Part shown: in pieces, positions 1 through 44,996 of the stretch
How the letters are laid out: every line of letters begins with the position of its first letter
Position numbering within the stretch: position 1 is the stretch's first letter
Sequence record: PZ789432.1
DNA from: a phage
Strand: one strand, 5' to 3'
Length of the DNA: 44,996 nucleotides
Notes under the pieces: generated by a model
What the model was told of the DNA's origin: nothing
The model's database searches: none
The model's input: only the letters and a program-made list of their open reading frames with translations
Translations under genes and position numbers: made by a program

Positions 1-257
1 GCCCTCGCCGGGTTGCCCCCATATGGGGTAGATCGGCGGTTGACCTAGGAATTGGGCTGGGCTGGTCCGTCTTCGACGGGTGGGCGAGGGCTTGCCGAGG
101 TCTGCTCTTAGTGGCTGCACAAGGAGAACGCCTAGGAAGCGCTAGGGCACGCCTTAGTATTGGACAAGGTGATTGCCTTAGTGAAGCCTCTTAGTGCATT
201 CCTTAGGTCATTCAGGGCGTTTATGAGGGATTGACAGGGTGGATGCGTGTGTGGGCT
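1..257. repeat. left direct terminal repeat of the linear phage genome
   Basis: 1..257 recurs in the same orientation at 44742..44996. Contains the perfect palindrome CCCCATATGGGG at 17..28. The two copies differ by one substitution and a 2-nt indel at the inner edge (ggatgcgtgtgtgggct vs ggatgggtgtgggct). Confidence 0.85.
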
Positions 258-264
258 ATCTGTT
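258..264 (+). terminator. ATCTGTT motif, T7-type class II RNA polymerase pause/termination signal (concatemer-junction-like)
   Basis: Exact ATCTGTT immediately after the inner edge of the left terminal repeat (gtgtgtgggct|ATCTGTTcc), the same position as the T7 CJ pause site. Confidence 0.5.
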
Positions 265-595
265 CCTTTGCTACGCTCACTCACTGGTTCGCTGCGCTGC
301 GGTCAGTCGCTGATGTGTACCTTAGGTTATTCCTTGATGGATGGCTTAGGTTAGCCTTAGTGGACTACCTTAGTTAAAGCCTTAGTGCTTCAGCTTAGTA
401 TCAGCTTAGTAGTGTACCTTAGTCAGTCTTAGTGTCTTCTCTTAGTGATTGCACATGCTAAAGCATGTAAGATGCCATTAGGTCGCGGTCGGTAGACCGC
501 TAAAGAAGGAGAATGGTAATAAGATGCAGTAGGAGGAACACCAGAAACCTAGCCAACCTAGCCTATCCTAGCTCTGTATCTATTGCTTTTCCTTA

Positions 596-611
596 GTCTA
601 ACATGTGAGAC
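596..611. repeat. near-copy (1 mismatch) of the 16-bp palindrome GTCTCACATGTGAGAC
   Basis: gtctaacatgtgagac; differs from the perfect copies at one position. Confidence 0.5.
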
Positions 612-645
612 AACCTAGATTTATCTTAGTGATGATATCTTAGTG

Positions 646-674
646 TTGACAAGGCCGTCTCAATATAATACTAT
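646..674 (+). promoter_or_regulatory. sigma70-like early promoter (TTGACA, 17 bp spacer, TACTAT)
   Basis: Perfect -35 TTGACA at 646..651; -10 TACTAT at 669..674 after a 17-bp spacer; upstream of the first early genes, as for T7 A-type promoters. Confidence 0.5.
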
Positions 675-817
675 TCATCACGTAGGCAGCACTGAGGTGC
701 TTAGTAGCCAGCTAGTAAGGCATACGAAGAGACTAGCGCTTACATTGCTCTTTAACAATTTGCTTAGTGTAACCTATGTATGCCGTGGTTAATTACTTAT
801 TGAATGAGGGATTAACT

Positions 818-36506: not shown

Positions 36507-36701
36507 ATGATTAACTCCGAACTGGTAGATAGTGGTGTGAAGCTTGCGCCACCTGCACTCGTATCAGGTGGGTACTTCCTCGGTATCAGTTGGGATAATT
36601 GGGTGTTAATAGCAACATTCATTTATACCGTGTTGCAAATTGGGGACTGGTTTTATAATAAGTTCAAGATTTGGAGGGAGAAGCGTGAGCGTACACAATA
36701 A
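36507..36701 (+). CDS. holin (T7 gp17.5-like)
   Basis: 64 aa; SD AAGGAGG; TM segment and WVLIATFIYTVLQIGDWFYNKFKIWREK paralleling T7 gp17.5 AAIAYTVVQIGAKVVDKMIDWKK. Confidence 0.65.
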   Translation: MINSELVDSGVKLAPPALVSGGYFLGISWDNWVLIATFIYTVLQIGDWFYNKFKIWREKRERTQ

Positions 36702-36984
36702 ACATGCAGCTACAGAGGATGAGGTTGGCATTCTGCATGGTGCTATTACCAAAATCTTCAATAAGAAAGCACAGGCAATACTGGACACTATAGAAGAAGA
36801 CCCTGATGCAGCATTACATTTAGTGTCTGGTAAGGATATTGGTGCGATGTGTAAGTGGGTTCTTGATAACGGCATTACCGCCACACCTGCTGCACAGCAG
36901 GAAGAGTCCAAGTTATCTAAGCGCCTCAAGGCTATCCGAGAGGCATCCAGTGGTAAGATAATTCAATTCACTAAGGAGGATTGA
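36685..36984 (+). CDS. terminase small subunit (T7 gp18-like)
   Basis: ORF track 36640..36984; no in-frame ATG early; GTG 36685 five nt after GGAGGGA; directly upstream of terminase large subunit. Confidence 0.6.
   Translation: MSVHNKHAATEDEVGILHGAITKIFNKKAQAILDTIEEDPDAALHLVSGKDIGAMCKWVLDNGITATPAAQQEESKLSKRLKAIREASSGKIIQFTKED
36778..36800 (+). promoter_or_regulatory. phage RNAP promoter inside the terminase small subunit gene (aatactggacactatagaagaag)
   Basis: Core ACTGGACACTATAGAAGA identical to consensus; +1 G at 36793. Confidence 0.55.
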
Positions 36985-40564: not shown

Positions 40565-40588
40565 GATTTACTGGACACTATAGAAGAG
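40565..40588 (+). promoter_or_regulatory. phage RNAP promoter upstream of the tailspike genes (gatttactggacactatagaagagg)
   Basis: Exact consensus; +1 G at 40583. Confidence 0.8.
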
Positions 40589-44526: not shown

Positions 44527-44597
44527 GCAAGTTAATATCTTAGTGTACACAAGGGCAGACCTAGGTTTGCTCTTAGTGTATTTACAATGGAGGTCTT

Positions 44598-44678
44598 ATG
44601 TATATACCTATGGAAGCAATAGTAGGTTGCCTATGCTTGTTGATAGGTTTCGTTATAGGCTTAATAGCAAATCCTTAG
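44598..44678 (+). CDS. hypothetical small hydrophobic peptide (26 aa)
   Basis: ATG 44598 after TGGAGG; weak. Confidence 0.25.
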   Translation: MYIPMEAIVGCLCLLIGFVIGLIANP

Positions 44679-44741
44679 TCCTGTACAAGGATTAACCAAG
44701 TCAAAATTTTGATGTAGGCGTGTGTCAGCTCTCTCGCCCTC

Positions 44742-44996
44742 GCCCTCGCCGGGTTGCCCCCATATGGGGTAGATCGGCGGTTGACCTAGGAATTGGGCTG
44801 GGCTGGTCCGTCTTCGACGGGTGGGCGAGGGCTTGCCGAGGTCTGCTCTTAGTGGCTGCACAAGGAGAACGCCTAGGAAGCGCTAGGGCACGCCTTAGTA
44901 TTGGACAAGGTGATTGCCTTAGTGAAGCCTCTTAGTGCATTCCTTAGGTCATTCAGGGCGTTTATGAGGGATTGACAGGGTGGATGGGTGTGGGCT
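44742..44996. repeat. right direct terminal repeat
   Basis: Same orientation copy of 1..257; preceded by extra ctcgccctcgccctcgcc units that the truncated left copy does not show. Confidence 0.85.

Follow-up and report, generated by a model that had tools for sequence, protein, structure and literature searches.

A strand-specific array of CTTAGT motifs around the terminal repeat of a Vectrevirus genome: a possible binding array for a packaging factor

Introduction

What role is played by the short, repeated motifs that crowd the ends of T7-type phage genomes? The question is raised by sequence record PZ789432.1, called here the window (the whole 44,996-bp stretch that was analysed), which is the complete genome of a Vectrevirus, a K1-5/K1E-like podophage of the Molineuxvirinae (Autographiviridae). 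At its left end, ahead of a first gene that starts at 818, the hexamer CTTAGT, often extended to CTTAGTG, recurs in an array that a sequence-only reading had likened to the CCTAAAG repeats at the ends of T7. Elements of this kind have been known since the T7 genome sequence of 1983, when Dunn and Studier reportedly described the terminal short-repeat arrays and named them SRL/SRR. The same reading called the role of the T7 repeats unclear, in agreement with the literature found: a search that did not take in the 2004 SP6/K1-5 genome papers returned no description of CTTAGT arrays and no test of the T7 arrays. Here, comparison of the window with its relatives and with other T7-type lineages leads to an answer that is offered tentatively: the array is predicted to act in cis, as a set of sites on duplex DNA to which a factor encoded by the phage would bind so as to act in maturation and packaging at the concatemer junction.

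The left 1.4 kb of the genome is closest to that of Vectrevirus LI10P3 (94% identity), with K1-5 at ~93%. Core proteins are mostly ~85-100% identical to their K1-5 counterparts, the main exception being the tail-spike region, and the single-subunit RNA polymerase is 99% identical to the K1-5 enzyme. The genome is bounded by a direct terminal repeat (DTR), at 1-257 on the left and 44742-44996 on the right; positions 1-245 match 44742-44986 exactly and, after two 1-nt indels, the match continues to 257/44996. All features are given on the + strand.

Distribution of the motif at the genome ends

Over the whole window and both strands, CTTAGT occurs 61 times, as against 30.6 +/- 5.5 in 100 dinucleotide-preserving shuffles, none of which reached 61, and the excess is confined to the genome ends. 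The genome body (43.6 kb) holds 16 copies on the + strand and 21 on the - strand, with no strand skew. Positions 107-768 hold 17 CTTAGT and 3 CTTAGG, every one on the + strand, and this 20:0 strand bias at the left end has a probability of 2e-6. The body rate predicts 0.29 CTTAGT per 681 bp where 17 were found (Poisson P = 1.5e-24), which together with the shuffles bears out the proposal that the motif is enriched over chance. The unique right end contributes CTTAGT at 44539, 44572 and 44674 (44539-44679, just left of the right DTR; 0.09 expected, P = 1e-4), one more than the two copies that had been counted there, and four additional CTTAGT belong to the right DTR copy. Across the 23 unique copies the consensus consists of a non-A base at -1, CTTAG, T (20/23) and G (12/23), and the flanks carry no further information.

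The sequence-only reading had placed about 20 copies in the left non-coding end. The count stands at 20; the location does not, as five copies (107, 153, 177, 190 and 202, the last of them CTTAGG) sit inside the DTR, in its right half, and the right DTR copy carries the same five. In a concatemer the motif zone spans ~1.2 kb, with 23 copies round a single repeat: 3 to its left, 5 inside and 15 to its right. With respect to the cut sites of the terminase, copies fall 68-203 bp to the left of the left one, and at the right one they extend from inside the repeat to 510 bp rightward.

Directly past the DTR boundary lies the heptamer ATCTGTT (258-264), its sole occurrence on the + strand of the window, followed by a C/T-rich spacer (265-320) that is variable in length and rich in indels in an alignment of 17 relatives. 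Beyond it comes a dense array of 10 copies at 321-447 (CTTAGG at 321 and 345; CTTAGT at 356, 369, 381, 394, 405, 418, 428 and 441), in which the spacing from 345 onward is 10-13 bp and the intervening sequence 4-7 bp. The spacing of 10-15 bp that had been described for the array as a whole holds in this block (10-13 bp over 345-441) and at 177-202; elsewhere the gaps run from 24 to 151 bp. Tandem Repeats Finder (TRF) reports periods of 24 bp at 318-387, 11 bp at 390-411 and 14 bp at 622-649. The dense block is a degenerate, decayed ~12-bp tandem lattice, and the view that the motifs are too irregular for a tandem satellite was accordingly only half right.

Conservation of the cores and of the lattice

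Relatives were drawn from IMG/VR by homology to the first gene product (18 relatives), and their ends provided an alignment of 17 distinct arrays. Scanning the same database for a pattern of three CTTAGT at close spacing said nothing about distribution, since the hits were for the most part perfect tandem repeats without relation to the array, in contigs of giant viruses and others. The same order is found in all relatives whose upstream DNA reaches far enough: the DTR end, ATCTGTT, a spacer of 45-76 bp and the dense array. Invariant columns make up 49/60 of the core positions and 9/64 of the spacer positions (Fisher P = 1e-14), and this difference indicates that purifying selection acts on the cores and not on the spacers. 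Whole repeat units have been gained or lost among the relatives while the lattice was kept, two units being absent in each of the relatives L129 and L136, and in the SP6 group a unit has decayed in place. Pooled spacings fall at 10-14 bp (mode 12, mean 11.9), and the longer gaps, 22-24 and 33-37 bp in size, correspond to multiples of the lattice period.

The motif extends well beyond the closest relatives. Strand-exclusive copies in the first 900 bp number 16 in K1-5, 12 in SP6, 11 in Proteus phage PM93 and 10 in Klebsiella phage KpnP_VR702, and presence of the motif in related phage ends, on which the likeness to the T7 arrays had been staked, holds for these four phages and for the 17 metagenomic relatives. 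Only 19-47% of the left end of the window aligns to PM93 and KpnP_VR702. PM93, which starts TGGGCT with ATCTGTT directly after it, has the array as well as the two hairpins and the palindrome described below. Phages of four host genera (Escherichia, Salmonella, Proteus and Klebsiella) thus have motif and layout in common, despite left ends that can otherwise hardly be aligned. On the other side of the repeat, the 400 bp that precede the right repeat hold exactly three + strand copies in K1-5 and in SP6, the same number as in the window.

These patterns bear directly on whether the array is a functionless by-product, either a tandem duplication in decay or copies clustered by chance. Such an origin would account for the tandem-repeat signature of the dense block and for the gain and loss of whole units among relatives. 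It does not account for a left-end Poisson probability of the order of 1e-24, for cores that stay invariant while the spacers diverge, or for a motif kept across four genera despite unalignable flanks and paralleled by the layout in T7 and T3. The functionless-repeat and chance readings are effectively refuted, and we regard a by-product of this kind as barely credible.

The repeat boundary and transcription

At the T7 concatemer junction, ATCTGTT serves T7-type RNA polymerases as the class II pause and termination signal, and recognition of the class II signal by T7 RNA polymerase is strictly sequence-specific (bioRxiv 10.1101/2021.01.11.426313; 10.64898/2026.02.12.705533). The heptamer occupies the same boundary position in K1-5 (234), SP6 (174), T7 (161), T3 (232) and Proteus phage PM93, and on the + strand it occurs once in the T7 genome, as in the window. 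The boundary sequence of the window is CTATCTGTT; at the corresponding position gh-1 has TATCTGTA and Era103 has ATCTATC. The dense block begins ~60 bp downstream of ATCTGTT.

Promoters of the phage RNA polymerase, with the consensus ATTTACTGGACACTATAGAAG, were located at 11 sites between 6166 and 40583, the last of them at 40575. None was found within <=6 mismatches of that consensus in 1-1500 or beyond 43000; the phage is without a counterpart of the T7 end promoters phiOL and phiOR. As the last promoter lies at 40575 and none is near the ends, late transcription from 40575 could cross the concatemer junction to reach the pause site.

Such an arrangement invites the thought that the array is itself a transcription-level element for the phage RNA polymerase, whether as half-promoter decoys, as slow-down sites or as CUUAGU repeats in read-through RNA. 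Its place directly downstream of the pause signal would suit this, and TTAGTG is one base off TTACTG, the -15 to -10 part of ATTTACTGGACACTATAGAAG. Against this likeness, by a rough estimate that was not computed, a 6-mer with one mismatch would arise by chance within a 21-nt consensus in several percent of cases, and CCTAAAG of T7 has no comparable likeness to the T7 promoter. Nor is there a phage promoter near either end of the window at the threshold given above. The array also gives little sign of acting as RNA: the predicted fold of 258-530 is not above that of shuffled sequences (z = 0.25), and no Rfam family matches within 1-1700 at E up to 1. A transcription-level role is therefore distinctly improbable in our estimate, and the array, having neither self-structure nor an Rfam match, fits a site for a protein that binds duplex DNA.

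Counterparts in T7 and other lineages

Direct comparison with T7 bears out the likeness to the CCTAAAG end arrays, in that the layout and the boundary heptamer ATCTGTT are the same. In the first 900 bp of T7, CCTAAAG occurs 11 times on one strand and not at all on the other. Three copies lie inside the 160-bp repeat and the remaining left-end copies (15 under a permissive pattern) to the right of it; ATCTGTT occupies 161-167, a lattice of 13 bp extends over 175-332, starting 14 bp past the repeat boundary, and three further copies fall within 150 bp before the right repeat. T3 is arranged in the same manner, with its DTR ending at 231, ATCTGTT at 232 and then C(C/T)TAAAG in steps of 12-13 bp. 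The arrays of T7 and T3 thus share with that of the window same-strand cores of 6-7 bp inside the repeat, a dense lattice to its right and three copies to its left. T7 also shares the wider setting: both are podophages of the T7 type, their RNA polymerase is single-subunit, their small terminase is of the gp18 family and ATCTGTT stands at the boundary. It differs in its core (CCTAAAG, as against CTTAGT(G) here), in the pitch of the lattice (13 bp, as against ~12 bp) and in the distance of the dense block from the boundary (14 bp, as against ~60 bp), and the array is followed in T7 by the phage promoter phiOL where two conserved hairpins follow it here.

Other members of the family have end motifs of their own, all of them strand-specific and less regular: CCATAGG, seven times, at the left end of gh-1 (1-500); CCTGGC, ten times, at that of phiKMV (1-900); and CCTTATGG, GGCTAGGC and a repeat unit of ~30-40 bp at that of Era103 (277-640). 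To judge from these genomes, it may be general in the family for each lineage to have end motifs of its own. From the sequence comparison, the array of the window appears to be the SP6/K1-5-group (Molineuxvirinae) counterpart, in a lineage-specific version, of the arrays that flank the T7 repeat.

The distribution of motifs also speaks to the identity of the factor that reads them. T7 and K1-5 have E. coli as a common host and differ in motif, whereas the SP6-group phages have one motif on four host genera, a pattern in which the motif appears to track the phage lineage and not the host. A reader encoded by the phage is therefore more likely than one encoded by the host, and a host factor as reader is disfavoured on the same two grounds.

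Arrays flank the repeat on either side in T7, SP6 and K1-5 as they do in the window, which would also suit an element that controls replication or recombination. Bound arrays would in that case limit 5'-3' resection, or would halt the synthesis by strand displacement through which the repeat is duplicated, so that just the repeat is exposed or copied. The dense block begins just past the repeat boundary, and completion of the left repeat is the step that is still to be explained in the literature. Three features of the array fit poorly with a barrier: five copies lie within the repeat itself, the single orientation presents opposite polarity toward the two resecting ends, and the copies are strongly asymmetric, with 15 on the left-end side and 3 on the right-end side. 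We consider control of this kind improbable.

A predicted role in maturation and packaging

A binding array for a packaging factor is proposed because copies lie inside and on both sides of the repeat, their polarity is fixed, they follow a lattice and their motif is specific to the lineage. Zhang and Studier are said to have proposed in 2004 that packaging and maturation begin as the prohead-terminase complex meets a polymerase paused at TATCTGT(T/A). Within such a scheme the cores would be putative sites for a phage-encoded protein, with the small terminase subunit as the leading candidate, and the bound protein would assemble head-to-tail along the lattice and aid the prohead-terminase complex at the junction. 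The array could act as a landing pad next to the paused polymerase during the right-end cut; alternatively, it could be a polar signal that the end is near, read by a motor packaging toward the left end before the left-end cut, in the manner of cosQ. The lattice is near to the helical repeat and unequal to it, which suggests either an oligomer assembled head-to-tail or a ring with DNA wrapped round it.

The small terminase subunit (T7 gp18 family) is encoded at 36685-36984 (Pfam PF11123, E = 2.8e-16); the protein is 100% identical to gp39 of K1-5 and 79-81% identical to its counterparts in SP6, PM93 and KpnP_VR702. It is a putative reader of the array and is not singled out by the data presented here, and no solved structural homologue of it was found by sequence. 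An attempt to pinpoint the reader by protein divergence did not discriminate among candidates, since Era103 is uniformly more diverged in all of its core proteins.

A still bolder version of the proposal, which we put forward as doubtful, holds that the polar array is the sequence-specific part of the T7-type packaging signal. An oligomer of the small terminase, or another phage protein, would polymerise head-to-tail on the ~12-13-bp lattice beside the polymerase paused at ATCTGTT and would thereby set the cut site, the direction of packaging and possibly the co-infecting relative whose DNA is packaged, and the motif (CTTAGT, CCTAAAG, CCATAGG and others) would co-evolve with its reader.

Several observations weigh against assigning the array to packaging. 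Era103 belongs to the same subfamily and is without a regular CTTAGT lattice, its boundary heptamer being ATCTATC, and the arrangement is therefore not obligatory in its present form. Nor do its proteins point to a particular reader: identity to the Era103 counterparts is 52% for the small terminase, 60% for the RNA polymerase and 65% for the large terminase, values that track overall divergence. If packaging runs from right to left, the dense block would lie on the non-packaged side of the initiating cut, unlike lambda cosB. Finally, packaging leaves unexplained the conserved copies that abut the first early promoter (625, 639) and those in the early leader (700, 763).

Motif copies at the first early promoter

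The last of these points concerns a second, sparser cluster of copies. A pair of CTTAGTG 14 bp apart (625 and 639; 625-645) precedes the first strong sigma-70-type early promoter, predicted at 646-674 by a consensus scan (10/12; TTGACA, a 17-nt spacer and TACTAT), and the second of the pair abuts the -35 TTGACA. The arrangement CTTAGTG-N6/7-CTTAGTGTTGACA is kept in K1-5, SP6, the Klebsiella phage and metagenomic relatives. By its consensus match only, the predicted promoter marks the right limit of the untranscribed leader. Beyond it, copies within the early 5' leader (700-769) stand at 700 (CTTAGTA) and 763 (CTTAGTG) and have counterparts near -118 and -55 relative to gene 1 in several closely related Vectrevirus genomes.

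These copies give substance to a different account, in which the array is an element of the leading end or of early expression, binding an ejected virion protein or a host factor so as to hold or protect the entering left end or to modulate the first early promoter. In T7-type phages the left-end DNA is the first to enter the cell, as is established for T7, and it is this DNA that holds 15 copies, placed between the repeat and gene 1; the pair at the first early promoter's -35 is kept in K1-5, SP6 and the Klebsiella phage, and K1-5 carries a further copy within the promoter spacer. Because packaging does not explain the promoter-proximal and leader copies, an entry or early-transcription role stays alive. 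It sits less well with the three conserved copies at the right end, which is the last to enter, and with a dense block that lies 200-300 bp upstream of the promoter and adjoins the repeat boundary. The difference in motif between T7 and K1-5 on the same host counts against a host factor, not against an ejected phage protein. Such a role seems unlikely to us, and a binding array for a packaging factor is retained as the favoured, if tentative, explanation.

Other features of the two ends

The region between the dense array and the first promoter contains further conserved elements. Directly past the last copy of the dense array is a hairpin at 453-468 (ACATGC taaa GCATGT), in which four of the six pairs are altered on both sides between haplotypes (ACATGC/GCATGT and ATAGCT/AGCTAT) and of which PM93 has a third version (ACAAGC/GCTTGT). 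A second hairpin at 485-500 (GCGGTC ggta GACCGC) has a conserved stem that is invariant in the relatives from E. coli, Salmonella and Klebsiella, K1-5 differing at one loop base; at its position PM93 has GCTTGC tgga GCAAGC, with arms that are still complementary. The two are linked by a conserved TAAGATGC, and neither has a T-run downstream or an Rfam match.

At 548-572 there are three copies of CCTAGC, 9-10 bp apart. Motifs that contain CTAG are under-represented genome-wide (123 observed, ~170 expected). The triplet is kept in close Vectrevirus relatives, is partial in SP6 and is absent in Klebsiella relatives, and Era103 has GCTAGGC repeats of its own. An isolated copy of the array motif at 592-597 overlaps the left arm of a conserved near-palindrome at 596-611 (GTCTAAC-AT-GTGAGAC), ~35 bp upstream of the first early promoter, and may be incidental, as several relatives read CCTTGTC there. 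K1-5 has a perfect version of the palindrome (GTCTAAC-AC-GTTAGAC), as have Klebsiella and metagenomic relatives (GTCCAAC-AC-GTTGGAC), and it is found as far as Era103 and PM93; its sequence resembles the operator of a dimeric regulator.

Downstream of the first promoter, the box GCTCTTTAACAAT occurs at 747-759 and again at 1292-1304, in each case ~70-100 bp past a sigma-70-type early promoter (646 and 1230), and it may be an RNA processing or regulatory site of early transcripts. A (CTAA)4 run at 1323-1340 places stops in all three frames just before a small gene that starts at 1351. At the right end, an imperfect palindrome centred on CCTAGG (44551-44574; AAGGGCAGACCTAGGTTTGCTCTT) is flanked by the CTTAGTG copies at 44539 and 44572, and KpnP_VR702 has a similar arrangement (CTTAGTCTACCCAAGGGCTGACTTAGGTTGGCTCTTAGTG). 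The two copies of the DTR differ at 246-248 and 44987-44988 (GCGTGTGTGGGCT and GGGTGTGGGCT), a few bases before the boundary; the difference either arose from sequencing or assembly error in a GT-rich run or shows that the repeat end is truly heterogeneous.

Significance

That a CTTAGT version of these arrays exists will not surprise a specialist in T7, and its value lies in making the question of array function more testable. The short repeats that adjoin the terminal repeat of T7 are a decades-old loose end in a very well-studied phage, and they are linked to a poorly understood step, the conversion of one terminal repeat in the concatemer into two. The comparative picture, with its invariant cores, fixed polarity, 12-13-bp lattice, position past a pause signal and lineage-bound motif, opens the way to cheap experiments. 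If true, the assignment to a packaging signal would give a function to repeats that have gone unexplained since the 1983 T7 sequence. Practical use may be found in the design of packaging signals for transducing particles of the K1-5/SP6 type and for synthetic phage genomes, in which trimming of "non-coding" ends could remove a needed element.

Comparison with other known systems

Clusters of short repeats with quite different functions are familiar from other systems, several of which can be set aside on unit size, on context or on the absence of a genome-wide skew. In a CRISPR array, repeats of 23-50 bp alternate with unique spacers of about the same length, and cas genes usually lie nearby; here the core is 6-7 bp, the gaps in the dense block are 4-7 bp and the phage is lytic and has no cas genes, so that the earlier exclusion of CRISPR was sound. 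The iterons of plasmids and phages resemble the array as direct, phased, repeated protein-binding sites, but they are 17-22 bp long and lie in origins, where they accompany DnaA and AT-rich elements. The chromosomal motifs Chi and KOPS are likewise short and strand-polar, read by a tracking enzyme, and differ in being dispersed genome-wide with a skew, whereas CTTAGT in the genome body (16 versus 21) is unskewed. Iteron and Chi/KOPS readings are thus ruled out along with CRISPR.

Close parallels outside the T7-type phages are offered by the R-sites of lambda cosB, by cosQ and by the pacL/pacR boxes of SPP1, which are terminase recognition elements of cos and pac phages. These share with the array of the window the clustering of short repeated sites at a terminase cut site. 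They differ in that their sites are few, longer and demonstrated to bind the small terminase, whereas the ~23 cores here are very short and putative as binding sites, and the dense block would lie on the unpackaged side of the initiating cut. Lambda cosQ offers a further likeness, being polar and reached by the motor, as it translocates, ahead of the terminal cut.

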